From IMG/VR virus record IMGVR_UViG_3300035498_002028: DNA of 29,397 nt, one strand, 5' to 3'. The position numbers and the translations under genes are program-made. Origin of the DNA: a virus (taxonomy: Duplodnaviria; Heunggongvirae; Uroviricota; Caudoviricetes). Positions within the stretch are counted from its first letter, which is position 1. Every line of letters begins with the position of its first letter. The notes beneath the pieces were generated by a model. That model was not told the origin of the DNA. It worked only from the letters and a program-made list of their open reading frames with translations, and searched no databases. Below are positions 2,393-28,493 of the stretch, piece by piece.

Positions 2393-4318
2393 ATGTCTGA
2401 TTTTACAGCTAAAATTATAGCTCAATTAGATACTTCCAAAATACCAAGCCAAATTTCACAGATTGGTAAAACCGGAATCAATCTGAGTAATGTTAAAATA
2501 AAGAATGTGCAGATGGATACAAGCAAACTTGCATCTCAAGTGCAAGCTGCATTAAACCGACAGAAGTTTACAATAAATATCTCAAAAATTGGTTTAGGAA
2601 ATGTATCTAATTTTGCAACTAGCAGTCTGACAAAGAGTTTAACTGATAGAATAAATTCTCAAATTAGTAGTGGCGGTATTGAAGCATCTATCGCCAAAGT
2701 AACTGCTCAGTATGAGAAGTTAGGCACCACAGGGCATTCAAAATTATCACAAATAAAAAGTGATATCGAAACCCTAAATAAACTGCAATCGCAGATGAGC
2801 ACATCATCAAATAGCAAGGCTTTGGTTAGCAATTATGAGAAGTTTAATGAGACGCTTGCCAAAGTAAAAAATAATTTAACAACAGTATCAGCGGAAAGTA
2901 AAACTTTTGCAACTAGCTTTCAAATAAATACTCTTGACAATAAGATATCTCAGTGGGCTGCAAATAATTCAAGGGCAATGTCTACTTTTGGTGCTGATAT
3001 TGCAAATGTGCAGTCTCAATTAAGAGCACTTGCAAGCTCTGGCGAAGTTCCACTGTCAAGTTTAAAATCGCTTGAGAATGAATTTAAGAATATTTCTTTA
3101 GCAGCTACGCAAGCTGGATTAACCGGAAAAACATTTGGCGATACAATGCGTGGCGCATTCTCTAGCATTACAAAGTATGTATCTGTTTCCACAGTCATTT
3201 ATCAATCAGTTCGTGCAATCAGAGAAATGGTTGATAATGTATACGAAGTTGATACAGCAATGACAGAATTATATCGTGTTACTAATTTATCAGCATCACA
3301 ATATAAATCTTTGTATGCAGATATGACAAACTCTGCAAAAGAATACGGAGCTTCATTATCAGAGATAATTGATTCTACTGCTAGCTGGGTTCGTTTGGGA
3401 TTTGATTCGCAGACTGCAAATAAATTAGCTGAAATCACTACAATGTATCAACATGTTACAGACTTAGATGAATCTACTGCCGTAGATAATTTGGTAACTG
3501 CATATAAGGGATTTCAAGAACAATTAGACGAATTATATTCTGGCGATTCTGCCGCAGCCGTAGAATACGTTGCCGATATTTTCGATAAACTTGGTAACGA
3601 ATTTGCTGTTACAGCCGCAAATGTCGGTGATGGACTGACAAATTGTGCTTCTGCCTTAGAGGTAGCTGGTAACTCAATTCAAGAATCAGCTGCTATGGTA
3701 ACTGGTATTACGGAAGTTACACAAGATGCTTCCAAAGCGGGCAATGCTTTAAGAACGTTATCTATGCGTTTGCGTGGTACAGACGCAGAAGAATTGGAAG
3801 CTCTTGGAGAAGATACAGAAGGATTGATTTCTGTAACATCGAAACTCCAAGACAATATTAAATCGCTCACCGGAGTTGATTTAGTGGATGCAGAAGGTCA
3901 ATTACGTTCTACATATGATGTAATGTCTGACCTGGCAAAAGTTTGGGATTCGTTAGATGGAAATACTCAATCAAACGTTTTAGAAACTATTGCAGGTAAA
4001 AATAGAGCTTCTGATATTGCCGCTCTTTTGAAAAACTGGAATCAAGTTGAATCAGCGATGCAAGCTGCTACTAACGCCGAAGGTACTGCTGCGCAAGAGC
4101 AGGAAACATGGAGCGAACACATACAAGCATCAGTAAAAAAATTACAGGCTTCTTGGGAAGCTCTTTCTAATACAATTATAAATTCCGATTTCTTAAAAGC
4201 ATTAGTAGATTCTGGAACATCACTTCTTGATTTACTTGACAATTTAATTTCAAAGTTTGGAACGATACCAACGCTTTTAGCTGGTATAGCTGCGGCTATG
4301 TCATTCAAAAATGTCGGT
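2393..4318 (+). CDS. Tape measure protein, exon 1 (TP901-type TMP core domain)
   Basis: ATG 2393 follows GGAGGT; typical motifs (VDTAMTELYRVT, AGNALRTLSMRL, RSTYDVMSDLAKVW, IAGKNRAS). The unspliced frame runs to TAA at 4342; the proposed 5' splice site follows GGT 4316-4318. Confidence 0.88.
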
Positions 4319-4709
4319 AGGGATAAAATGTTTTCCCTCTAATCTTAAATGCCGACAGTTGTGAAATTTCTATTGGATACAATAGTTTAGACACAACGCT
4401 CAATGAAATACATTGAGTTAAACGAAGTCTCAATATGCGAGGAAAATGGTACACTGTAACTACTCTCCTACTATGGCAACATAGATAGGTTCGTAACAAT
4501 GTTGCACTCCATTGGTTCGCAGGGATAGTTCTCTTTGAGAAAAGCCCTCACTGTAGCGACAACAGATGGTCGTGGTTATATGCAACGATGCCACGGTAAT
4601 ATGCGCTCGGAACTAACCGAAGTATGACGGTATTATTATAGTAGGAATCCTATCTCCTTCTCTCATACATGCTTGACCCTATGATATAAAGGGTAAAATA
4701 GGAGTTATA

Positions 4710-5006
4710 TCACCACTTATATCCACAATTTTGACATTCAAATTGTGAACGTGCTGTTTTACTAAATAAACCAAAAGCATATCCATGTAACACCCTTTTC
4801 GCATAGGATATTGTTTTAATATTAGTGGATTTACAAGTTGGACATATAGGAATATTACTTTGTTTCACTATTTGTTCTCTTCGTTCCAACTGGTCTTGTT
4901 CTGATTGTTCATCCGAATAAGGAACAAGCCGATTTCTGTCGTTGAGACAATAATAATCATTTGGTTGGTTGTAAATACGTTTGCACAATGGACAAATTTT
5001 CATCAT
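4710..5006 (-). CDS. Intron-nested antisense zinc-ribbon protein, function unknown
   Basis: 98 aa with CPLC, CPTCKSTNI and CQNCGYKW plus a short FGLFS hydrophobic patch; AAGGGGGA RBS; no HNH, GIY-YIG or LAGLIDADG motif seen. Confidence 0.8.
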   Translation of the reverse strand: MMKICPLCKRIYNQPNDYYCLNDRNRLVPYSDEQSEQDQLERREQIVKQSNIPICPTCKSTNIKTISYAKRVLHGYAFGLFSKTARSQFECQNCGYKW

Positions 5007-5010
5007 TAAA

Positions 5011-5056
5011 TCCCCCTTGATAATATTATTATATCATCTTTTTTGTAGCTTTTCAA
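5011..5056 (-). promoter_or_regulatory. Sigma70/SigA promoter and RBS for the antisense gene
   Basis: Minus strand: TTGAAA (5056-5051), 17-nt spacer, TATAAT (5033-5028) with extended TGn; RBS AAGGGGGA (5018-5011). Confidence 0.8.
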
Positions 5057-5083
5057 TATACAAGCAAGATTGAAAATAGTTCG

Positions 5084-8000
5084 ATTTTTAGAAATTTATC
5101 TACTGAATTAGATGGATTTATCAATCAAGTGGGTATTGCTAAAACAAGTATTGCTGATTTAGTCAATGCATTTAACGCTGGAAGTTCTGGGAAAACTGGC
5201 GCTAGTGGACTTTTTAGCGGATTATCTGCCATGCAAAATTCTGTTAGCAGCGGAATTACTCAACAAGACATTGTTAATATACAAGCCTATAATGACCAGA
5301 TAGATGCTTGTGTTGGTTCACAAACTGCTTTTTATAGAACAATGCTTTCCTCTTCAAAAGCAGCGCAAGATATGGTTGCTGAATGTAATGGTGGAAAAGT
5401 TGCGCTTTCTGGACTAACCGCTGCTGAAAACACTTCCTTGGGAGCTACAATCGCGCTAAAAGTTGGAGTTATAGCCCTTAATGTTGCTTTAACAATGGGA
5501 TTGGCATTGGCTATTCAAGCTGTTATTACAGGTTTAACAAAACTTGTAAATGCTAAGAAGGATGCAGCTGATGCAGCTCAGACAGCCGCAAGTGAAGCAA
5601 AGACCGCTGCCGAAACCGCCAAAGAAGAAGCGGATTCTATTGACGAGTTAATTGAAAAATATAAAGAACTCAAAAATAGTGACACTCAAGATTCTTCCAC
5701 AAGAGCTGAAATTGCAGATATTCAATCACAAATCGTAGACCTTGTTGGCGACCAGGTAGAGAATTTAGATTTGGTCAATGGCAAATTAGACGAACAGATT
5801 GAAAAGTTAAATGAAGTCAAACAGTTGGAAGCCGAAAAAGCTCTTGATTTTGCAAATACGGCATATACAACAGCAAAGAAGGCTTCTGATACTGCTATCG
5901 GTGACGATAGTGTTGGGTTTTCTAGCGGCTATGAGTATTCCGGAAAAACATCATACTCTGAGAAAGAATTAAGAAATGCACTTGGCGAATATTATCAAGC
6001 TGTAAGTAAAAGACCAATATTTGGCACATACGGAGTAAATTTAACATCTAACGAACAAAACCTCGAATTTTCTGGCATTGATGTGAGTACAATCGAAGGC
6101 AAAATTGATGCATTAGAGGAAATGCGCAATAGATTGTCAACATTGGAAGGATATGCCGATGATGACTTATATACCGGATTAGGTACTGCTATTGAAAAAT
6201 ATCAAGAGTTGTTAGACGAGGAAACTGATTCTGCTAAATCATTGATAGAACGTGCTGCGGATGTTGAATCTTATAACAACGATATAATTGTAGATAGTGC
6301 TGAAACATATGAAGAATATCGTAAGAAATTGATTGATTTAATTTCTGATAATGATTATATTTCTGGTAAGCTCTCTAGCGGCGATATAAGTACAGACCAG
6401 ATTGAAACATATGTGAATGACTATATGGCTTCACTTGATACATTTTCTGATTACTATGATGAATGGGCTGAAAAGTATAATTCTACCACGGAATCAGTGA
6501 ATGATGGTGAAGTGCCATTGGCTGGAATTTCCAAAGCTATAGCAGATGAAACAAAACGAGTAGAAAAGTTTTCAGAACTCACAAAGAATTTTAGTGATGA
6601 AACAAAAGAATGGTTTAATGGTCTTAGTGATAGTGACCAAGATATTGTATATGATATCAGCTTAGAAGTTGATGATTCTGCGACATTTACTTTAGAGAAA
6701 TGGAAAAGTGAATTAGAGACTGTCAAAGAAACTGGAAAGACTACTGAATCTTCATTACAAGATTTTTATGATTTAATGCAAGATACAGATGATGGTAATT
6801 TTTCAACAGTTATTGATGATTTTACTTCACAGCTTGATACATTACAATCTGCGTTAGATAATTACTATTCCGGAAATTTATCAAATTCAGATATTTTCGA
6901 TTTAATGCAGAATTTCCCGATTCTTACTCAATATGCAGATGATTTGGGAACTGGAATCAAAGTTGCAATGCAGGATATAATCGGCAGCACAAGTGACGCT
7001 GGTTCTGTTATGGAAGTATTTGATGAACAGATACAAGCGGTTGGTGAGAATTCTGCTGCTGCTGATGCTTTGAGAACACTTAGAGACGAAATGCTTAGTC
7101 TTTATAGTGTAGCTGACGATGGCTTTTCTTTTAAGATAGATGCAGAGATTGGTCATATGGATACTGTATATGACGCTATCGAAAAATCTGTTTCTTCTAC
7201 GGGATTAGACACTGATACTATTAACAGTGTCAAGCAATTATATCAAAACCTTGAAGGCTATGATGAAAGCACGTTATTTGAAAGAACTGCGAATGGTATT
7301 CACTTAAATGTTACTGCACTCAGAGAACTTGAATCGGAATACGAGAAGCAAAAGAAAAGTGAAATTGATAGTCATTTAGATGATTTGATTAGTCAGTACA
7401 ATGACTTAACGGAGCAAATCAATGATTGTAGCGATGCGGCTGGAACTGCGGATTTATATGCTCAAAGGGCTGATATATTAGAGCAAATCAATGATACAGC
7501 GGATTTAGCTGCACAATACGAAGGACTTACATCGGCATTTAATAAGTGGGAAGAAGCGCAATCTACACCAGATGAAGATGATATGTTTACAACCTTATCT
7601 GACGGTCTGGATGATATTAAAGAATTGTTTGATTCCGGCAGAGTTGGTGTCGATGATTTTAGAGAAGCTGTACAGCTTATGACAGATACAGATTTGTCTA
7701 CTGCATCTGTTGAAGAGCTTATGTCTGTATATGACAATGGCTTTTCTACTATGAAACAATTTTTCACTGGAAGCCAGGATGGATTATTACAATTTCTAAA
7801 TACTGCGAAAACAGTGAGCGATGAGCTTGGTGAAGATTGGGTCAAGTTAGACGAAAACGGAAATTGGTCTGTCAACCTCGGCGTTGGTGGCGATGAAGAA
7901 CTTGCAAATGCAATCAATGAAATGACAGATTTGCAAATGTCAACAGAAGAGGTTCAAATTCTTTTAAGAGCAATGAGTGCTTATGGATTTGATGTCAATT

Positions 8001-11000
8001 TAGATTCTGCATATTCATCTTTTGAATTATTGCAATCAGATGCGGAAGAAGCAAATGATAAGTTAAAAGAATTATCTAAGACCGATTATACTTTTACGTT
8101 TGATACTCAAAGCATTGATGATGTAAATGAGCAAATAACAAAAGCCCAGGATATCCTTGACACTTTTAAGGATACGGATGGCAATGTCGATGTGAGCATA
8201 GATGGCGCACAAGAAGCTCAGACAATATTAGGTACTCTCATATCTAATAAGCAGACATTAACTGCGCCAGAAGTAATGCAGATTGATACTACTGCTCTAT
8301 CAGATGTGGATACAGATATATCAAATGCCATTAGTTTGATGCAGGAATTTACGAAATATTCCAATGACCTTGAGATTGAAACATCGTTAGGAATTGATAC
8401 CTCTGATACACAAGAGAAGTTACAAAATGTAGCTTCTAAATTGGATGAGGTTCCGGATGAAGTAAAAACCAAGTTGGAATTGGATGATGAGGATTTTCAG
8501 ACTGCATTAACTAATCTTTCTAATACGGAAGTTGATGTTAGTACTGGTGTCACCTTAAATAGTGAAGATATTGAAAGTGTCCAGTCTGCAATAAATGGTA
8601 TTAAAACCAAAGATATTGAGTTGCTGACCAATTCTTCCGAAGTTACAGAAGCATTGGATGGAATTGATGAATATACGATTGATGACAAAACTTTTAATGT
8701 TTCCATAGACAACAATCCTATGATGGAACTTTATAGCATCAATTCATATGTAATAAAGGATAAGACATACAAAGTAACCGCAGAAACTTCTTCATCTGGA
8801 ACAAGCGATGCTCAAGGTTCGGCATATGCAAAGGGCGTAGCTTATAATTCCGGAGATTGGGGAATTAAAAATAGCGGCACTGCTTTAGGTGGTGAATTAG
8901 GGCAAGAACTTGTTGTACGTGATGGTAAATATTTTACTATCGGTGACAATGGTGCGGAATTCTTCAATTATAAAAAGGGCGATATTATTTTCAATGCAGC
9001 ACAAACCAAAGAGCTTTTTGAAAATGGTAGAGTTACAAGTTATGGTGGAAGAGGAAAATCTTTTGCAAAAGGTACTGCTTTTTCTAATGCTCAAGGTACA
9101 ATGTACAATAAGGGAGATGTTGTAACTGTTGGAAAAGTATCTAGTAGTAACGACAACAGTAGTAGTAGTAAAAGCAATTCTAAAACCGCACTGGAAAAAT
9201 TCCAAGAATGGTTCTCAAAACTGTTTGACTGGATTGAAATTAAACTTGAAAGACAAGCAGATAAGATAGAAAAATATACAACCAAAGCCGACAATGCTCA
9301 AAATAATGGAAACTATAAAAGTGCTGCTAAAAATTATAGGAAAGCTATAAACGCAACCACAACCCAAGTTTCTTATGAACAAAAAGCAGCGTCTAAATAT
9401 AATACACAGGCTAATTCTGTCTTAAAGAAAGCTGTGTCTATGGGTGTTGTTTCTCAAAAGCAAGCTAATTCTATTGCCAAAAAAGTAAAGTCTGGAAGCA
9501 TGAATATATCTGAGTATTCAGATAAAATTCAAGAGGTTATCAAGGACTACCAGGAATGGTATGAAAAATCCAAGAGCGCCAAAGATGCTATTACTGAATT
9601 ACATCAGTCAATCCGTGAATATATTCAAGACTTAAAAGATGTTCGTGATGCTCAAAGAGATGCAAAGCTGGAAAGTATAGACACATACTCTTCTATCGGA
9701 ACATCTGGCGTTACACAAACATCTGCTGCTAAAAATAGCCAACTCAATTATACAAATTCGCAATTAAAGTCACAGAATGGCGCATACGATACGGAAGTTA
9801 AAAATGTTTCCAGTGATACAACCTCAGTTGGTAAAACAGGAACTAAAGCTATCAATAAAGCGTTAAAAACCAGTGACGCAAAGAAGAAAAAGGTTTACAA
9901 GAAAGCCCTTAACAATGCGAAGAAGGCTATTGAATCGAAGCAGAAAGTTTCAAGCGCTGATTTAAAGACAATTAAGAAATACTCTATTTCTGTTTATGAA
10001 AAGATATATGCATATAATATTGCTTTAGATAATCTTGAAACAGCAAAGTTAGAGCAGGCTACAAATTACGCAGCCACAAGTTCGGAAATCTATCAAAATA
10101 TTGCTGAAACATATAGCAATATGGATGAAGAGACGAATGATAATATTAGCTTATTATCTCAAAAGGCTAATAATGCTACGACTGCAAGTGCGAAGAATAG
10201 CTATCTTTCACAACAAGCAGCTCAGTATGATACTATATTGTCAAATGACGATGCAGAAATCAATAGATATTCTGCTGAGGTTAGTAGTAATAAAAGCACT
10301 ATTTTAAAGAAAAATGCTGGCACGAGCAAGTATAAGAAACTTGATTCAGCAACGCAAGCAGCTGTTAAGAAAAAGATTGAAGCTGCACGAAAAGCCGCCA
10401 AATCCGGTGTGGCTATTAGTGCATCGGTAATATCCGCACTTGCGAAATACTATTCAAAGGGTTATGTAACCAAAGCGTTTTACCAAGCATGTGTTGACTA
10501 CAATAATGCAATTGAAAGCAAAGCACAAGCAGAAGCCCAGAAAGAAATTGATGAGCAGACAGCTATTGCAGAAAAAGCCGCCATTGGTACACAAATGGTT
10601 AGCAATGTCGAGCAAGAGTATACCAATAAGCTGAATGAGAATAGTTCAAAAACTGCTCAAATTACCACAGCTCAATCTCTTAAAACGACAAGAGGTTTGT
10701 CATTAACCGCATCTGATTATAAGAATTTAATCAATCAGAGCAAGACAGACCAATCGCTTTATAGCCAAGCTGCGTCTGCTATCTCACAACAGATACAGGC
10801 AAATTTAGCAGCTGGATACTGGACAACTGATTCACAGGAATATAAAGATGCCATTCAGACAATGAATGACTACTCTAATAAAGCCGAAGAATGTAGAGTT
10901 GAGCAAGAGGAATGGAATAATGCCATAGCGCAAATTCCGTATACCAATCTCGAAAAGGTTCTTGACTTGTTGGATTCTATCAAAGATAATTACAAGTCTC

Positions 11001-12820
11001 TGCTTTCTATTAGTAGCGCCAAAGGATTAACAGAAACAGAGAGCCAGTATTTAACTGAGATAGCGAATTTGAATGCTGAAATCGCTAGATATCAAGAGCT
11101 TCGCGCTCAAGCATGGAGCGATTATCGGACAGCGTTAAATAGTGCCGACAGTGTTTATGGCGGCAAAACTGCCGATGAATGGTTGGAAATATACTATGAT
11201 TATGATACTTCTATCAATAATCTCACAGCAGATATTGTAGAATTAAATAATTCTATTGCCGACCTTCCATATCAATCAGTCGAAAAGATTCTTTCATTAC
11301 TAGAATCTGCACAATCATATGATAAATCTTCAATAGATTATAAATCAGCTCTTGGTTTAGACTTGAGCGTATCTGATTATGAGAAGCAGATGGAGAATAA
11401 CAGTAAGCAAATTGAGCAATATCAGAAAGAAAGAACTCAAGCATATGCTGATTACTTAAAAGCGCTTTCTAACTCAGAAGGTGTTTATGGCGGCAAAACT
11501 GCTAATGAGTGGCTTACTGAATACAATCAATTTGGCACTTCTATCAATAATCTTCTTGTAGAAAATGAAGAACTCAAAGATTCGTTAAGAGACGATGTAT
11601 ATTGGAGAACATTTGAAAAGGCTCATGCAGCTGCTCAAAGATTTCAAGATGTACTATCCGGTTTGTCAGAATTGATTGATGATGATATGTATTTTGATGA
11701 TGATAATAATTTGACTGAATACGGTGTTGCTCAAGTCGCTAATCTTGTTAGCGAATATGAGAATGCGCGCAAAGAAGTACAAAATTATCAAGCAGATATC
11801 GAAAACTTAAATAAGTTATACGCAGATGGTTTTTATACCGAAGATGAATATACTGAAAAGTTGAATGAGTTACAAGTTAGCTTATTAGATTCTGCATCAT
11901 CAATGAAAAAGTTTTCTGACAGTATTGTTGACATGTATAAAGACATGGCACAATCAGAGTTAGATTCACTTATGGACTTAATTGATGCGCGAAATGATGC
12001 ATTGAGCGCGAAGAAATCCTATTATGAATATGATAAGACAATTAAGGACAGAACAAAGGATATTCAAACACTAGAAGCTGAGATTGCAGCTCTTGAGGGT
12101 GTCGAAACAGCCGAAGCAAAAGCTAAACGTGCGACCTATGAAGCACAATTATCTGATGCAAAAGATGAGTTAGAAGATACTATCAATGAGCATATCTTTG
12201 ATTTATCACAAGATGCCCTGGATGAATTGAAAAATACATTACAGGATGCTTTTGATGATAAATGGGATAATATCAATTCAAATCTTACTGAATTGGCAAA
12301 TCTTATGTCAACTGCGAACCAGCTAACTTCTAGTTCGGCTGGTACTATTGTAAGCACAATGAATAAGCTGTTAGACTACTACGGTATTGACCCTGTAGCT
12401 TCCGGCATTCAAGCCGCTTATGCTTCTGGTACTAGAAATGTTCCTAAGAAACTCAATGCTCTTACCAACGAAAAAGGTAATGAGATTATTGTCACAAAAG
12501 ATGGTATGATTACTCCATTGGAGCAAGGCGATGGCGTTATTCCGTCATATTTGACAGATAGACTATACGACTTAGCTTTGAAAGGTGTACCTACACCTAA
12601 TATAACCATGCCAGACATCTCTTTTCCGGATATCGAAATCCCAGCGACAGAGGTAAGCCAACATTTTGATAGCCTTATCAATATTGAAGGTAGTGCTGAT
12701 GCTGCGACCGTGGAAGATTTGAAAGCACTCAGTAAAGATATTCTTGAAAAGTCATATAACTACACAAGTGAAAAAATCTACAAAGGATACTTAAAATCCG
12801 GCGGGAAAAGATATGTGTAA
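5084..12820 (+). CDS. Tape measure protein, exon 2
   Basis: ORF track 5129..12820; the frame is open back to 5024. Long coiled-coil protein with a TM-like segment near its start and TMP motifs (ALGGELGQELVV, YASGT..NEKGNEII). No convincing RBS before GTG 5129. Confidence 0.85.
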   Translation: MFRNLSTELDGFINQVGIAKTSIADLVNAFNAGSSGKTGASGLFSGLSAMQNSVSSGITQQDIVNIQAYNDQIDACVGSQTAFYRTMLSSSKAAQDMVAECNGGKVALSGLTAAENTSLGATIALKVGVIALNVALTMGLALAIQAVITGLTKLVNAKKDAADAAQTAASEAKTAAETAKEEADSIDELIEKYKELKNSDTQDSSTRAEIADIQSQIVDLVGDQVENLDLVNGKLDEQIEKLNEVKQLEAEKALDFANTAYTTAKKASDTAIGDDSVGFSSGYEYSGKTSYSEKELRNALGEYYQAVSKRPIFGTYGVNLTSNEQNLEFSGIDVSTIEGKIDALEEMRNRLSTLEGYADDDLYTGLGTAIEKYQELLDEETDSAKSLIERAADVESYNNDIIVDSAETYEEYRKKLIDLISDNDYISGKLSSGDISTDQIETYVNDYMASLDTFSDYYDEWAEKYNSTTESVNDGEVPLAGISKAIADETKRVEKFSELTKNFSDETKEWFNGLSDSDQDIVYDISLEVDDSATFTLEKWKSELETVKETGKTTESSLQDFYDLMQDTDDGNFSTVIDDFTSQLDTLQSALDNYYSGNLSNSDIFDLMQNFPILTQYADDLGTGIKVAMQDIIGSTSDAGSVMEVFDEQIQAVGENSAAADALRTLRDEMLSLYSVADDGFSFKIDAEIGHMDTVYDAIEKSVSSTGLDTDTINSVKQLYQNLEGYDESTLFERTANGIHLNVTALRELESEYEKQKKSEIDSHLDDLISQYNDLTEQINDCSDAAGTADLYAQRADILEQINDTADLAAQYEGLTSAFNKWEEAQSTPDEDDMFTTLSDGLDDIKELFDSGRVGVDDFREAVQLMTDTDLSTASVEELMSVYDNGFSTMKQFFTGSQDGLLQFLNTAKTVSDELGEDWVKLDENGNWSVNLGVGGDEELANAINEMTDLQMSTEEVQILLRAMSAYGFDVNLDSAYSSFELLQSDAEEANDKLKELSKTDYTFTFDTQSIDDVNEQITKAQDILDTFKDTDGNVDVSIDGAQEAQTILGTLISNKQTLTAPEVMQIDTTALSDVDTDISNAISLMQEFTKYSNDLEIETSLGIDTSDTQEKLQNVASKLDEVPDEVKTKLELDDEDFQTALTNLSNTEVDVSTGVTLNSEDIESVQSAINGIKTKDIELLTNSSEVTEALDGIDEYTIDDKTFNVSIDNNPMMELYSINSYVIKDKTYKVTAETSSSGTSDAQGSAYAKGVAYNSGDWGIKNSGTALGGELGQELVVRDGKYFTIGDNGAEFFNYKKGDIIFNAAQTKELFENGRVTSYGGRGKSFAKGTAFSNAQGTMYNKGDVVTVGKVSSSNDNSSSSKSNSKTALEKFQEWFSKLFDWIEIKLERQADKIEKYTTKADNAQNNGNYKSAAKNYRKAINATTTQVSYEQKAASKYNTQANSVLKKAVSMGVVSQKQANSIAKKVKSGSMNISEYSDKIQEVIKDYQEWYEKSKSAKDAITELHQSIREYIQDLKDVRDAQRDAKLESIDTYSSIGTSGVTQTSAAKNSQLNYTNSQLKSQNGAYDTEVKNVSSDTTSVGKTGTKAINKALKTSDAKKKKVYKKALNNAKKAIESKQKVSSADLKTIKKYSISVYEKIYAYNIALDNLETAKLEQATNYAATSSEIYQNIAETYSNMDEETNDNISLLSQKANNATTASAKNSYLSQQAAQYDTILSNDDAEINRYSAEVSSNKSTILKKNAGTSKYKKLDSATQAAVKKKIEAARKAAKSGVAISASVISALAKYYSKGYVTKAFYQACVDYNNAIESKAQAEAQKEIDEQTAIAEKAAIGTQMVSNVEQEYTNKLNENSSKTAQITTAQSLKTTRGLSLTASDYKNLINQSKTDQSLYSQAASAISQQIQANLAAGYWTTDSQEYKDAIQTMNDYSNKAEECRVEQEEWNNAIAQIPYTNLEKVLDLLDSIKDNYKSLLSISSAKGLTETESQYLTEIANLNAEIARYQELRAQAWSDYRTALNSADSVYGGKTADEWLEIYYDYDTSINNLTADIVELNNSIADLPYQSVEKILSLLESAQSYDKSSIDYKSALGLDLSVSDYEKQMENNSKQIEQYQKERTQAYADYLKALSNSEGVYGGKTANEWLTEYNQFGTSINNLLVENEELKDSLRDDVYWRTFEKAHAAAQRFQDVLSGLSELIDDDMYFDDDNNLTEYGVAQVANLVSEYENARKEVQNYQADIENLNKLYADGFYTEDEYTEKLNELQVSLLDSASSMKKFSDSIVDMYKDMAQSELDSLMDLIDARNDALSAKKSYYEYDKTIKDRTKDIQTLEAEIAALEGVETAEAKAKRATYEAQLSDAKDELEDTINEHIFDLSQDALDELKNTLQDAFDDKWDNINSNLTELANLMSTANQLTSSSAGTIVSTMNKLLDYYGIDPVASGIQAAYASGTRNVPKKLNALTNEKGNEIIVTKDGMITPLEQGDGVIPSYLTDRLYDLALKGVPTPNITMPDISFPDIEIPATEVSQHFDSLINIEGSADAATVEDLKALSKDILEKSYNYTSEKIYKGYLKSGGKRYV
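10900..11580 (+). repeat. About 110-aa tandem repeat within the TMP (approximate limits)
   Basis: GTGTTTATGGCGGCAAAACTGC occurs at 11151 and 11481 (330 nt apart); VYGGKTA.EWL...TSINNL and IA..PY...EK.L.LL.S each occur twice. Confidence 0.8.
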
Positions 12821-24443: not shown

Positions 24444-26777
24444 ATGAGTGATTCAAAGAAAATTACTGATTTATCACAAGTAGAATCTGCTAGTGATTCT
24501 GACTTGTTACTGTTAGATACAGCAAAGGGTACAAAATCCATTACTGCATCTACATTACTAGCAAAACATGGAGATGTCTCTGTCAGCAGCGAAGATGGTG
24601 CTCATGGTATTAGATACTATAATAATGAGCTTGCATATAATGACGGAGAAAATTGGAACAAAATTAAAACAGGCGGTTCTGCCGTAATACCAGGGGACGT
24701 GACCAACATTACAGCAAAGCCATCAAATAAGAAAATCATTTTGACATGGACAGACCCAGAGGATGTAATAATTTCTGGCGCATATTTATGTCGTTGGGCT
24801 GGAACAAAAGTTGTTTATAAGGAAGGCTCATATCCAACTTCCCCGGATGACGGAACACTTGTTATTGATAGTCAAGTACGAAATCAATACGCTTCGGAAG
24901 GTCTTGAAATTACAGGATTGACAAATGGCGTTGTATATTATATTGCTTTATTCCCATATAGTACAGATGATGCAGAAAATACAAATGAAACAAATAGAAC
25001 TTCTGCTACACCTGCGGCAATACAGTTAGATAATTGTACTTCTGTTTCTGCCACAAAAACAAATAACTCTGTAACAATTACATGGACTGACCCAGCGGCA
25101 ACTAAAAATAACGGAGATTATACAGCTTCGTGGGCTAAAACGGTCTTAGTTTATAAGGAAGGCTCATACCCTACAAGCATTAACGATGGAGTGGTTGCGG
25201 TAGAAGAAACTACACATGATAAGTATTCATCTTCTGGATATACTATTTCCGGCTTAAATGAAAAGACAAGATATTACTTCTCACTGTTCCCTGTATCAAC
25301 TGATGATATTGTAACTGTTCCAACGAACGGAAGTGTATCCGTACTGACAGGTGGTTTACTTACCGTAAGTACAAGTGAAGCGTCACTGTTTGGAAAAACT
25401 GTTACAGCAACTTCTTCTGGCGGCGTTTCTTCATCATCAACTTTCGACAATGAGGGACAGGCTACCATTATAACAGCGTGGTTAGGCAAGACAACTGTAT
25501 CCTCAACAGACGGAGATAACACAGCAGAATCAGAGATTGACATTACATCCTATGCTGATAGCGGATTTTCCGTTGAATTGGCATTTTACGAATTATATGG
25601 CTTTAAAATTGAAAAATCAAATTCCAACCCGGCAAATAGAGTTACCTATCTTTCAGATTGCAAAAATGCATCCTACTCTTCTGCCTATATGGATTATACT
25701 ACTGGAAAGTTTAATTACGGTTCATGGGCTGACGCTTTCTTTATCAAGAATTTAAAACCATGTATGCTTAAATACAATGGTACGGTCGATTACGAATTAA
25801 ATCCAGATGATTATTCAAAGAAAAAGACTGGCGGCTCTTCGGATATCTCAAATACTTCATATGAAGGAAATGCAATGGTTGGTTTCCCTACTATTTGGTT
25901 TAAAACTTATGAATCTGATGGATATCAGTATTGCTATATTTGTTCTAAGCAGCTTGATAGTTCATATAAAGCATATGCTCATATGGATAGTGCCGGAAAC
26001 ATTATGCCGTTTACATATCTTCCAATCTACAACGGTTCCCTTATTTCAAGCAAGGTTCGTTCCTTGAGCGGACAAACTATCATGAATACACAAACCGGAA
26101 CAAATGAGATTACTTATGCAAAAGCAAATAATCTTAGTGGTTCTACTATTTGGTATACCGAGCTTCTTTGTGACAGAATTATGGTCAATCATCTTCTTAC
26201 ACTTATCGGTAAGTCAACAAATACACAGACTGTATTCGGTAATGGATATTATACAGGTGGTTCATCTGCTAGTAACTTATTACAGAGCGGAACAATGGAT
26301 GCTAAAGGTCTGTTTTATGGAACTAATGGAACAGGTGTCGGCGTTAAGGTATTTGGTATTGAAAACTGGTGGGGCAATCAGTGGCGAAGAATTGGTGGTT
26401 GGATTAACTCAAATGGTACGCAGAAAGTAAAATTAACTTACGGTACGCAAGATGGTTCAACTACTACAGGATACAACACGGATGGCACTGGATATATTTC
26501 ACTTGGCTTAACACCTGGCGGCACATCTGGAGGTTACATTTCAGCTTCTACAATGAATGCATATGGATTATTCCCTCAAACTGCTAGTGGGTCAGATTCT
26601 ACATATGAATGTGATGGTCTATGGTTCAGCAATTCTCAAGTAGATTATGCGTGTGGCGGTGGCTGTTGCGGCGATGACTTGCGTGTTGGGGCTTTCTGCT
26701 CGAGTCTGAACGTTGCGGTTTCGCATTCGGGCTGGAGCTTTGGCGCGTCTTTGTCTTGCAAACCTCTCTCAGCATAG
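24444..26777 (+). CDS. DGR target protein; probable receptor-binding/adhesin fibre with two FN3-like domains and a C-terminal C-type-lectin-like variable domain
   Basis: Two copies of TWTDP..W..T..VYKEGSYPTS..DG...GL....YY..LFP.STD; GIENWWGNQW motif; C-terminal GG...GAF......GASL matches the TR. Confidence 0.85.
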   Translation: MSDSKKITDLSQVESASDSDLLLLDTAKGTKSITASTLLAKHGDVSVSSEDGAHGIRYYNNELAYNDGENWNKIKTGGSAVIPGDVTNITAKPSNKKIILTWTDPEDVIISGAYLCRWAGTKVVYKEGSYPTSPDDGTLVIDSQVRNQYASEGLEITGLTNGVVYYIALFPYSTDDAENTNETNRTSATPAAIQLDNCTSVSATKTNNSVTITWTDPAATKNNGDYTASWAKTVLVYKEGSYPTSINDGVVAVEETTHDKYSSSGYTISGLNEKTRYYFSLFPVSTDDIVTVPTNGSVSVLTGGLLTVSTSEASLFGKTVTATSSGGVSSSSTFDNEGQATIITAWLGKTTVSSTDGDNTAESEIDITSYADSGFSVELAFYELYGFKIEKSNSNPANRVTYLSDCKNASYSSAYMDYTTGKFNYGSWADAFFIKNLKPCMLKYNGTVDYELNPDDYSKKKTGGSSDISNTSYEGNAMVGFPTIWFKTYESDGYQYCYICSKQLDSSYKAYAHMDSAGNIMPFTYLPIYNGSLISSKVRSLSGQTIMNTQTGTNEITYAKANNLSGSTIWYTELLCDRIMVNHLLTLIGKSTNTQTVFGNGYYTGGSSASNLLQSGTMDAKGLFYGTNGTGVGVKVFGIENWWGNQWRRIGGWINSNGTQKVKLTYGTQDGSTTTGYNTDGTGYISLGLTPGGTSGGYISASTMNAYGLFPQTASGSDSTYECDGLWFSNSQVDYACGGGCCGDDLRVGAFCSSLNVAVSHSGWSFGASLSCKPLSA
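26648..26757 (+). repeat. DGR variable region (VR)
   Basis: 110-nt ungapped match to 26881-26990 with 20 mismatches, 18 of them opposite TR adenines. Confidence 0.95.
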
Positions 26778-26809
26778 GAAGAGGGAATTGCGGAATGAAA
26801 TGTAGCAAG

Positions 26810-26829
26810 GGGGAAACATTCGTTTCCCC
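26810..26829 (+). promoter_or_regulatory. DGR target-recognition hairpin/cruciform (possibly also a terminator)
   Basis: GGGGAAAC-attc-GTTTCCCC: 8-bp stem and 4-nt loop just downstream of the VR, as in characterised DGRs. Confidence 0.7.
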
Positions 26830-26880
26830 TATTTTAAGTTGTTAAAAAATTTATTTTAAATAAGGGATTGTGGTAACGAC

Positions 26881-26990
26881 TGCGTATGTCGGTGGCAATT
26901 GCAACAATGACTTGCATGTTGGGGCTTTCTACTCGAATCTGAACAATGCGGTTTCTAATTCGAACTGGAACATTGGCGCGTCTTAATCTT
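26881..26990 (+). ncRNA. DGR template region (TR)
   Basis: Non-coding copy of the VR with nine AAY codons in the VR frame; located upstream of the RT. Confidence 0.95.
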
Positions 26991-27115
26991 ATCTAATCTT
27001 GGGATAAAAAACTAAATGTTGCCACAATTCCTCTCCCCTTGGAGAAAATTAACTCGTTGAGAGATGCTGTTAGTAACTATTTTATAGAGAAAGTGGTACA
27101 GAGGATAAGACAAAA

Positions 27116-28246
27116 TTGAAAACTTACAAGAATTTATACGAAAAATTTATATCAGAAGAAAATATCCGGCTCTCAATCATAAATGCTAGTAAGCATAAAA
27201 GAAAAAGAAAAGATGTAAAAAGAGCTTTAAATAATCCAAATTATGAAAAGATAATTGAAGAATACGCTGCAAATTACAAAAATCGAAAACATACACCTAA
27301 AGAAATCTATGATGGTATTTCAAGAAAAAGAAGGACGATAATTGTACCATCCTTTGAAGAGCAAGTAGTTCATCATATGGTGGTCAATGTTATGCAGCCG
27401 ATGTTCAGAAAAGGAATGTATGAACATACCTACGCTTCTATTCCACAAAGAGGCGGTCATAAAGGTAAGAAATATATTGAACGGTGGATTTCAAATGGTG
27501 GTAAAGATATAAAATATTGTTTCAAAATGGACATTAGAAAATTTTTCGATAGCATATCACACGATATACTAAAAGAAAAATTGAGACGGAAAATTAAAGA
27601 TGAACGTTTTTTGAAAATCCTTTTTGAAATAATAGATGTCACTGAATCCGGCATACCTTTAGGCTTTTATACTTCTCAATGGCTCGCCAATTGGTTCTTA
27701 CAAGATTTAGACCATTATATCAAAGAAGAACTTGGTGCTAAATATTATATGCGCTATATGGACGATATGGTTATATTTGCTTCAAACAAGAAGAAATTGC
27801 ATCAAATGAAAGACGCGATAGAATGTTATCTTAAAACTGAATTAGGTCTGGAAATAAAACAAAATTGGCAAGTGTTTAGATTTCATTATATAGATAGAAA
27901 GACTGGTGAAGAAAAAGGCAGATTTTTAGATTTTATGGGATTTAGGTTTTATAGAAACCGGACTACATTGAGAAGGAGCATATACTTCAAAGCCTGTAGA
28001 AAAGCAAATAAAATGAGTAAAAAGGATAAGGTGACAATCCATGATTGCAAACAGATGCTATCCTATCTAGGATGGATAAAATCAACTGATACATATTCAG
28101 CATATGAAAAGTATATAAAACCAAAAGTTGATTTTGGTAAATTAAAGAAACGCATTTCTAATTATGATAGGAGGAACAATAATGTCAAATTTAATATGGA
28201 AAAAGAGCGAGAGCACAGTGTACCCACAGACTGTTGTTGCATATAA
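27116..28246 (+). CDS. DGR reverse transcriptase
   Basis: KMDIRKFFDSI, GIPLGFYTSQWLAN, YMRYMDDMVIF and LDFMGF motifs; 376 aa; TTG start; adjacent to the TR. Confidence 0.95.
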   Translation: MKTYKNLYEKFISEENIRLSIINASKHKRKRKDVKRALNNPNYEKIIEEYAANYKNRKHTPKEIYDGISRKRRTIIVPSFEEQVVHHMVVNVMQPMFRKGMYEHTYASIPQRGGHKGKKYIERWISNGGKDIKYCFKMDIRKFFDSISHDILKEKLRRKIKDERFLKILFEIIDVTESGIPLGFYTSQWLANWFLQDLDHYIKEELGAKYYMRYMDDMVIFASNKKKLHQMKDAIECYLKTELGLEIKQNWQVFRFHYIDRKTGEEKGRFLDFMGFRFYRNRTTLRRSIYFKACRKANKMSKKDKVTIHDCKQMLSYLGWIKSTDTYSAYEKYIKPKVDFGKLKKRISNYDRRNNNVKFNMEKEREHSVPTDCCCI

Positions 28247-28493
28247 CGATTATGCTTACATTCGTAAAAATGTGGTGGTCGAAGAAAGAAAGTATGAAAA
28301 TAGCGACGATGTTGTTAATTTCTATGTGTACGATGAGTGTCTTACAACGCCTAATGCAGCAATTGAGTGGTTAAATGAGCAAAATTCTGCGTTAGTTAAA
28401 AAGAGTGCTGAGCTGAGTGATTATATTGATAACATTTTAACCGATGTAATTCCAACAATTGTTGATGAAATTACTAATGTGACGGAGGAATAA
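28182..28493 (+). CDS. Small phage protein, possible fibre-assembly chaperone
   Basis: ATG 28182 follows AGGAGG; beta-rich N-terminus (YIRKNV) and coiled-coil end; overlaps the RT end by 65 nt. Confidence 0.6.
   Translation: MSNLIWKKSESTVYPQTVVAYNDYAYIRKNVVVEERKYENSDDVVNFYVYDECLTTPNAAIEWLNEQNSALVKKSAELSDYIDNILTDVIPTIVDEITNVTEE

Follow-up and report, generated by a model that had tools for sequence, protein, structure and literature searches.

A predicted group I intron in a phage tape-measure gene holds an antisense zinc-ribbon gene in a loop that related phages fill with variable cargo

Group I introns of phages are usually viewed as selfish elements that carry homing nucleases. Group I introns are already known from tape-measure genes, as are introns that carry a transposon and a giant intron that holds genes, and the locus described here has points in common with each. 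Prophages of the Bacillus cereus group have group I introns, TMP-IVS1, IVS2 and IVS3, in their tape-measure genes (PMC2504315). These share with the present intron, as far as the available part of that report goes, the prophage tape-measure setting, an early stop codon inside the intron, the usual lack of a homing endonuclease and the presence of different introns at one site; the only ORFs that it describes for them are endonucleases or endonuclease remnants, and neither a self-promoted antisense gene nor cargo of several genes is mentioned in it (PMC2504315). The core described below differs from the TMP-IVS introns in its doubly bulged P7 and in having just five unpaired bases that separate P7 from P3. 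Vibrio phage ICP1 likewise has tape-measure introns and a spliced transcript, and there too intron content varies while splice junctions stay; in the accessible text on ICP1, the swappable content consists of HNH endonucleases only, whereas here it comprises accessory and defense-like genes, reaches up to 9.6 kb and occupies both strands (PMC10448857).

Two further systems are similar in part. The hexacoral mitochondrial intron ND5-717 holds functional non-nuclease genes over many kilobases; its insert, in the portion of the source at hand, is located in P8, is made up of core mitochondrial genes and is handled by back-splicing (PMC6545197), whereas the insert described here lies in the P9.0 loop and consists of variable accessory phage DNA. 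In IStrons, such as CdISt1, a group I ribozyme keeps extra DNA at its 3′ end from harming the gene that is interrupted; the cargo, in the sections available, is a transposon, by which the element spreads to many sites (PMC4227781). In contrast, the site here is fixed, the cargo is open-ended and the unit carries no mobility gene: no IS200/IS605 or IS607 transposase and no TnpB was found in the window, and the only transposases among the 149 scanned cargo representatives are two Mutator-family insertions.

Phage morons include gp15 of HK97, which lies beside tail genes. Morons such as Tab of JBD26 are small self-promoted genes that lie inside late operons and are expressed from the prophage, a description that would also suit the zinc-ribbon gene reported here, and some morons act on the tape-measure proteins of other phages, according to the part of the source available (PMC10884400). 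Unlike these morons, which are placed between genes, the zinc-ribbon gene lies inside an essential gene, within an intron and on the opposite strand, and no sequence shared with any named moron product was detected in it. In the mostly open-access literature covered, neither a phage intron acting as a variable accessory-gene island nor a cargo-filled tape-measure intron was found described.

The window, i.e., the whole stretch of DNA that was analyzed, comprises 29,397 nt of the IMG/VR record IMGVR_UViG_3300035498_002028, a 101-kb virus contig that is 65% complete. The contig encodes tyrosine recombinases and tRNAs, together with a 927-aa protein similar (E 2e-21) to proteins annotated as YonO polymerases in SPbeta-like phages. 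Because relatives sit in provirus-classed records and in long contigs of Lachnospiraceae and Oscillospiraceae, a temperate life style is likely for this phage. The window also contains, at 24444-28493, a diversity-generating retroelement with a reverse transcriptase at 27116-28246 and a template-like repeat at about 26870-26990 that resembles the end of the ORF at 24444-26777, the differences falling mostly at adenines; RT-17/RT-18 matches from Rfam at 27028-27129 are weak and below threshold. Elsewhere in the phage (G000:C1:95600-99638), at least six adjacent small genes share the starting motif K-[IFY]-R-x-D-F-V-T-N-S-S-S-S-S.

Pfam and PHROG matches identify the ORFs that flank the intron as two halves of one tape-measure gene. 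Exon 1 (2393..4318, plus strand) has 642 codons, ends in KNVG and matches PF10145 (E 4e-23) and PHROG tape-measure families; exon 2 (5084..12820, plus strand) has 2578 codons and begins with IFRN. The unspliced reading of exon 1 stops at 4342, and this 649-aa form is present in the database, whereas joining position 4318 to 5084 restores a single frame with a predicted product of 3220 aa. A tyrosine recombinase gene (1270-2322) lies directly upstream of the tape-measure gene, and in Brevibacillus phage Sundance one similarly lies two genes before it. In other relatives (P0002-P0120; L206, L208, L209), tape-measure frames stop at several other points and have other tails, and some tape-measure genes have a second, upstream interruption, which in L209 holds a 312-aa gene; the tape-measure gene looks like a hotspot for several introns.

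The 765 nt between the two halves (4319..5083, plus strand) are assigned to a group I intron by fold, covariation and in-frame junction. Our main reading, to which we give a probability of roughly 0.8, is that this intron is self-splicing and that the loop closed by P9.0 holds an antisense zinc-ribbon gene likely transcribed by the host in the lysogen. The helix names P1 to P9.0 and the textbook form of the core are used here in their general meaning. In P1 (4312..4357), the end of exon 1 pairs with an internal guide at 4351-4357, forming a helix of seven pairs closed by the U4318·G4351 wobble at the 5′ splice site, and nucleotides 4347-4350 can form P10 with the first 4 nt of exon 2. The catalytic core (4427..4609, plus strand) comprises P3 (4427-4430/4564-4567), P4 (4436-4440/4517-4521), P5, P6, P7 (4551-4558/4604-4609) and P8 (4571-4575/4591-4595).

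The P1-P8 structure was drawn on the window sequence, and its pairs were then counted in 26 diverse relatives. In these 26 sequences, 92% of the cells are paired, compared with 72% in shuffles and 32-44% when the structure is slid along the sequences; 61 of the 79 pairs are changed on both sides, a figure reached in none of 500 shuffles. Both-side changes affect four of the four pairs in P3, four of five in P4 and five of five in P8, and P3 is 100% paired using four different pair types. It must be borne in mind that the structure was derived from one of the compared sequences, and that conservation of P7 is partly built in because part of P6-P7 belonged to the search pattern.

Related introns were collected with a 20-nt core motif, which returned 59 viral and 65 genome-contig loci, and with a second motif, which returned 27 more; these intron DNA motifs found more loci than a single-protein scan of viral contigs, which gave one locus, an intron-less one. 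Including the window, 92 of the first 125 loci were kept as having the core right after the same tape-measure site. Loci without an exon-1 match ending at the insertion site were excluded, and about a dozen of the 65 genome-contig matches, which lacked a second P7 strand or a tape-measure gene, were judged chance matches and dropped.

The G-binding G-C pair of P7 is invariant in all 26 relatives, and the G is followed by a second bulged base, U or C. Positions of P7 that the search left free still covary: the first P7 pair, next to the G-C pair, is C-G at 86 of the 92 loci, U-A at three, A-U and G-C at one each, and misregistered at one. A second core type has a different P7, which is also complementary, and the extra bulged base after the G occurs in both types. 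To our knowledge, a second bulge adjoining the G-binding pair of P7 is absent from any textbook group I core, so that the intron may be inactive or may need a helper. One relative, L032, has a plain textbook P7 at the same tape-measure site. Rfam gave no group I match in the window, nor in L032, L115 or L062; because it misses even L032 with its textbook P7, the blank result carries no weight. The 5′ splice-site pair is U·G at 79 of the 92 loci, C·A at 12 and unassigned at one; where C·A replaces U·G (L111, L116, L134, L138, L146, L150, L164 and others), both bases have changed together. When L008, L009, L018, L020, L030 and L032 are compared with L005, different catalytic cores stand behind one and the same P1-P2 sequence at an unchanged site, which points to recombination within the intron.

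The 3′ end was placed by P9.0, whose 5′ strand (GAACUA, 4610..4615) pairs with UAGUUC at 5077-5082, followed by the terminal G5083 (together 5077..5083, plus strand); the loop is therefore exactly 4616-5076. G5068 and G5131, which likewise give an open frame, were rejected as 3′ splice sites, since only G5083 follows a P9.0 partner. Exon 2 was in view at 64 loci, of which 59 were retained after duplicates were removed. A P9.0 of at least five pairs followed by G lies in phase with exon 2 at 40 of these 59 loci, as opposed to 2 and 2 in the other frames; at six pairs, the corresponding counts are 25, 0 and 0. In this blind test 19 of the 59 loci fell below five pairs, and in 26 weak cases that were rechecked the usual 3′ motif was present in 14 and absent in 12. 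The comparison set of 68 non-redundant introns with both ends assigned was chosen for an assignable 3′ end, so its count of P9.0 pairing, 55 of 66, is partly circular; for this reason we rely on the frame control. The two P9.0 strands co-vary across kilobases, GAAC occurring with GUUC, GUAC with GUAC or GUAU, and GUGC with GCAU. Exon 2 of the relatives mostly starts with IFKT, and its guide pairing (P10) extends up to nine bases, compared with only four in the window.

A scan for the uninterrupted junction returned three loci, two of which were chance matches. The third, L200, is a tape-measure-like frame that reads KNVG-IFKT and stays open for 841 aa, i.e., an intron-less allele carrying the junction typical of relatives. 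The tape-measure gene is also uninterrupted in L001 and in three cultured phages chosen by tape-measure similarity, and neither the intron core nor the cargo has a match in the GenBank phage collection. At the level of sequence, a group I ribozyme fold with compensatory changes and an in-frame 3′ splice site are shown.

The comparison set puts the window in a wider context. Intron length, whose observable range is bounded by the 10-kb flank, extends from 354 nt in L115, which is empty with intact ends, to 9639 nt, with a median of 4624. In the 68 introns, 430 ORFs were called, which fall into 165 clusters and occupy both strands, although the gene caller was crude and ORFs below about 80 aa in these counts may be spurious. 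Only 4 of the 160 intron pairs whose cores are at least 95% identical have the same set of cargo genes, and cargo GC is below that of both exons in 63 of 67 introns. Scans of 149 of the 165 cluster representatives against Pfam and of 108 proteins against PADLOC gave defense-like matches (ToxN/AbiQ, NsnA/B/C, AbiEi/ii, MazF, NYN, Mrr, and the CmdTAC-like PD-T4-9 A and C within one three-gene run) and others to DUF3800, Bro-N and Mutator transposases, most of the 149 representatives being without a Pfam match. A toxin-antitoxin or defense-like cluster is present in 17 of the 68 introns. A DUF262-like gene (cluster c1) is found in 32 of the 68 introns, on the sense strand near the 5′ end; the window phage has a similar-looking gene elsewhere (G000:C1:80117-81166), and the intron copy is possibly a core gene that moved in.

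Among cargo genes of at least 100 aa in introns longer than 2.5 kb, 73 are sense and 10 antisense in the first half of the intron, compared with 9 and 77 in the last quarter, which amounts to a convergent layout. The last gene before the 3′ splice site is antisense in 67 of 67 introns, and a strong promoter-like site faces it on the minus strand in 18 of 67, versus 2 of 67 for the plus strand. The relatives themselves thus document, in their sequences, an exchangeable cargo of 0 to more than 9 kb whose last gene is fixed in the antisense direction. Since in related phages the content of this loop ranges from nothing to more than 9 kb, some of it defense-like, the intron is likely a harmless storage site inside an essential gene.

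The initial annotation had proposed comparing tape-measure genes that end near KNVG, and would have taken a conserved ribozyme core with variable antisense cargo as support for its reading; both the covarying core and the cargo turnover agree with it. Its proposal of a landing pad for a moron-type gene is supported, with the correction that the gene is not an arbitrary one, its family being the commonest in the slot of fixed polarity (see below). Analogously, the window does carry a single cargo gene in place of a homing endonuclease, as had been suggested, whereas the system as a whole is far larger, with up to 9.6 kb on both strands, and 4 of the 68 relatives have a nuclease-like gene within the same loop.

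Sense-strand terminator-like sites are found in 42 of the 48 introns of at least 2.5 kb versus 2 of the 20 short ones, exon 2 contains one such site in 178 kb, and no general signal of extended pairing between the far ends of the introns was detected (11 of 67 at z < -2, with no length trend); because of such sites, and with no extra long-range pairing, plain cis-splicing of long introns is not assured. The terminators would suit an alternative without any cis-splicing, in which the tape measure consists of two separately made proteins or two RNAs supply the exons for joining in trans. The terminal G belongs to an in-frame ATG in 39 of the 68 introns, in keeping with this, and there is a precedent for a giant group I intron that does without cis-splicing, as stated in the part of the report available (PMC6545197). 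We nevertheless regard this alternative as improbable: no Shine-Dalgarno match precedes exon 2 at any of the 68 loci, compensatory changes have preserved the core, the intron-less allele reads on in a single frame, and the window intron is only 765 nt long, has no sense terminator-like site and ends in the codon TCG.

Splicing in cis being preferred, the terminators of long introns may be read through by a YonO-type polymerase, as is suggested by the gene content of these phages. A gene for such a polymerase is present in the window genome and in 7 of the 10 relatives tested, 2 of the 10 having been found by protein search and 5 of 5 upon a repeated search with the family profile, with three not found or not searched again. 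YonO is described, in the portion of the source available, as processive and pausing little, and the late genes of SPbeta as transcribed in one operon (PMC5467207). In one relative (G120:C1:47138-51212), the YonO-type gene is itself in three pieces.

In the window, the P9.0 loop is occupied by a gene on the minus strand (4710..5006) that encodes 98 aa with three CxxC pairs (CPLC, CPTC and CQNC) and the C-terminus CQNCGYKW. An RBS-like sequence, AAGGGGGA (5011..5018, minus strand), is separated from the first ATG by 4 nt and from the second by 7 nt, a spacing that makes 97 aa the likelier length. Upstream of it, at 5028..5056 on the minus strand, lies a promoter-like site, TTGAAA-17-TATAAT with a TG extension, which matches the sigma-70/A-type consensus at 11 of 12 positions. 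It is the best of nine promoter-like sites in 3500-6500, where the total is not raised (shuffle mean 11.3), and none of 100 shuffles of the stretch before the gene reaches its score. Just past the stop codon, an inverted repeat without a U-run, ACCCT-N9-AGGGT (4676..4694), is shared with 1 of 67 other introns (L128); no terminator consisting of a hairpin and a U-run follows the stop codon in the window, whereas L062 has one. Thus, among the marks of a moron, the gene has its own promoter and RBS by consensus, is replaced among relatives and is lower in GC, and it is without a terminator of its own.

In the predicted protein, a helix separates two zinc ribbons, the second of which is conserved and contains an amphipathic insert modeled at low confidence (pLDDT 80 and pTM 0.43 for the whole model). 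A fourth site is CxxD in the window protein, and C5, C8 and C20 are kept in at least 90% of 49 relatives. No transmembrane helix is predicted (best 19-residue hydropathy 0.5). Comparison of the model with the PDB gave no match at E 0.001; fold searches returned one unnamed siphovirus protein at 1.8e-4, a best Z of 3.2 and weak generic zinc-ribbon matches, and the ESM Atlas solely unnamed or generic zinc-ribbon clusters. PADLOC gave no defense profile match for the protein. The gene has 50 close database relatives; within the family the C-terminal 45 residues are conserved and the N-terminal part is freely replaced. In 26 of 27 close pairs, which are not independent and one of which had a single change, dN/dS is 0.02-0.57, and between the window gene and that of L128 dN is 0.11 and dS 1.56; judging from these substitution patterns, the gene is under purifying selection. 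In L147, L165, L134 and L148, the loop is filled with two or three tandem diverging zinc-ribbon copies, between which dN/dS is up to 0.57.

The possibility that the protein is a cryptic homing endonuclease deserves consideration, given its location in an intron loop, its zinc-binding motifs and the nuclease-like genes found in the same loop of four relatives. Some HNH enzymes bind zinc. However, no nuclease family in Pfam, PHROG, NCBIfam or PADLOC matches the protein, and none is among the Pfam and NCBIfam matches listed for the 49-member alignment (25 of 26 NCBIfam families). The only invariant residues in the 49 relatives are C55, P56, C58, G79, S82, C91 and C94; no H, N, D or E is invariant, the sole histidine, H74, being kept in 27 of 49, and there is no conserved catalytic motif. 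Given also the free replacement of the N-terminal half and the occurrence of tandem copies, a nuclease function is very unlikely. The features reported in the initial annotation, namely a 98-aa zinc-ribbon gene within a P9.0 loop spanning 4616..5076, its own promoter and RBS (both as consensus matches) and the lack of an endonuclease motif, are all recovered here; a cargo that is neither transcribed nor under purifying selection had been named there as an argument against its reading, and purifying selection is seen.

The zinc-ribbon family is found in 41 of the 68 introns, always antisense (50 of 50 genes), and supplies the last gene in 36 of 67; 25 of the 31 other last genes encode a strongly hydrophobic stretch of 19 residues. 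In a scan with the zinc-ribbon motif, 10 of 11 viral loci lie between tape-measure exons, five of the 10 being near-identical phages whose ribozyme is unmatched by the core profile. Of 113 bacterial genomes, 10 have a match, which precedes an exon-2-like frame in five, including the seed genome, and lies elsewhere in the other five. The family therefore favors the slot and is not confined to it.

Such a preference could mean that the protein serves the intron or the tail gene, either by assisting splicing with the unusual P7 or as a partner or regulator of the tape measure, and its frequency in the introns, particularly as the last gene, would fit. So would the observation that, among 22 pairs whose exon-2 starts are nearly identical, 20 have the last gene in common; we attribute this to linkage, since at all but one locus just 57-154 nt of poorly conserved DNA separate the two, and a cognate pairing of last gene with exon-2 type was set aside for that reason. 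On the other hand, 27 of the 68 introns, including the empty L115 with its intact ends, lack the family, unrelated membrane proteins occupy the same slot, half of the matching bacterial genomes have it in other settings, and related exon-2 starts are accompanied by different last genes (L183, L106, L089 and the window). In our opinion, a role in the service of the intron or of the tape measure is unlikely.

The fixed polarity of the last gene admits yet another explanation, that the antisense transcript itself matters by entering the ribozyme core and keeping the tail gene, whether of the lysogen or of a related incoming phage, from being spliced or transcribed. The window has no terminator-like site between the cargo stop codon and the core, the first weak one being at 4417-4399, and such a transcript could thus run on. 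This explanation does not account for purifying selection on the protein; moreover, L062 has its hairpin and U-run right after the stop codon, and in long introns the last gene lies kilobases from the core with convergent terminators in between. There is accordingly only a small chance that the transcript, and not the protein, is what matters.

For a storage site whose cargo would be expressed from the prophage, the following sequence of events is proposed. In the lysogen, the zinc-ribbon gene would be transcribed alone by the host RNA polymerase. The last cassette would have to point away from exon 2, presumably because a sense cassette would either drive the tail and lysis genes in the lysogen or require a terminator, which would then obstruct the late transcript; this would account for the fixed polarity. 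During lytic growth, the cassettes would be crossed by the YonO-type polymerase that the phage itself encodes, the short helices P9.0 and P10 would draw the remote 3′ splice site into place, and the intron would remove itself from the late tape-measure transcript. DNA inserted within P9.0 would cost the tail protein nothing, as it should leave together with the intron.

As to the protein, analogy with morons such as Tab and with its cargo neighbors suggests an effector role. We tentatively picture, at slightly under even odds, a lysogen effector that acts in phage competition, by exclusion or defense, at the membrane surface via its conserved C-terminal module, with the variable N-terminal part setting the target. 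With about the same reserve, a lysogen-expressed effector is ranked as the most likely role, ahead of an intron helper, an antisense effect and a cryptic nuclease. A broader interpretation of these loci, possible but somewhat more doubtful still, is that, in temperate gut phages that encode YonO, a domesticated intron has become a defense island of fixed polarity: the host polymerase would read the cassettes in the lysogen, the zinc-ribbon family of the terminal slot would be a hitherto unrecognized anti-phage effector, the loop would supply new defense genes, and YonO read-through with a variant ribozyme that relies on P9.0 and P10 alone would allow up to 9.6 kb to be removed.

A ribozyme of the same kind as those of the selfish introns appears to be kept here as a safe insertion site for accessory genes. 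The interruption explains why these phages have their tape-measure genes annotated as fragments. The loop is a sharply bounded place in which to mine anti-phage genes of gut phages. With this system it can also be tested over what distance a group I ribozyme is able to find its 3′ splice site and whether host terminators are disregarded by a YonO-type polymerase, and the 765-nt intron of the window, the simplest of the compared introns that is intact and carries cargo, would be a good bench model.
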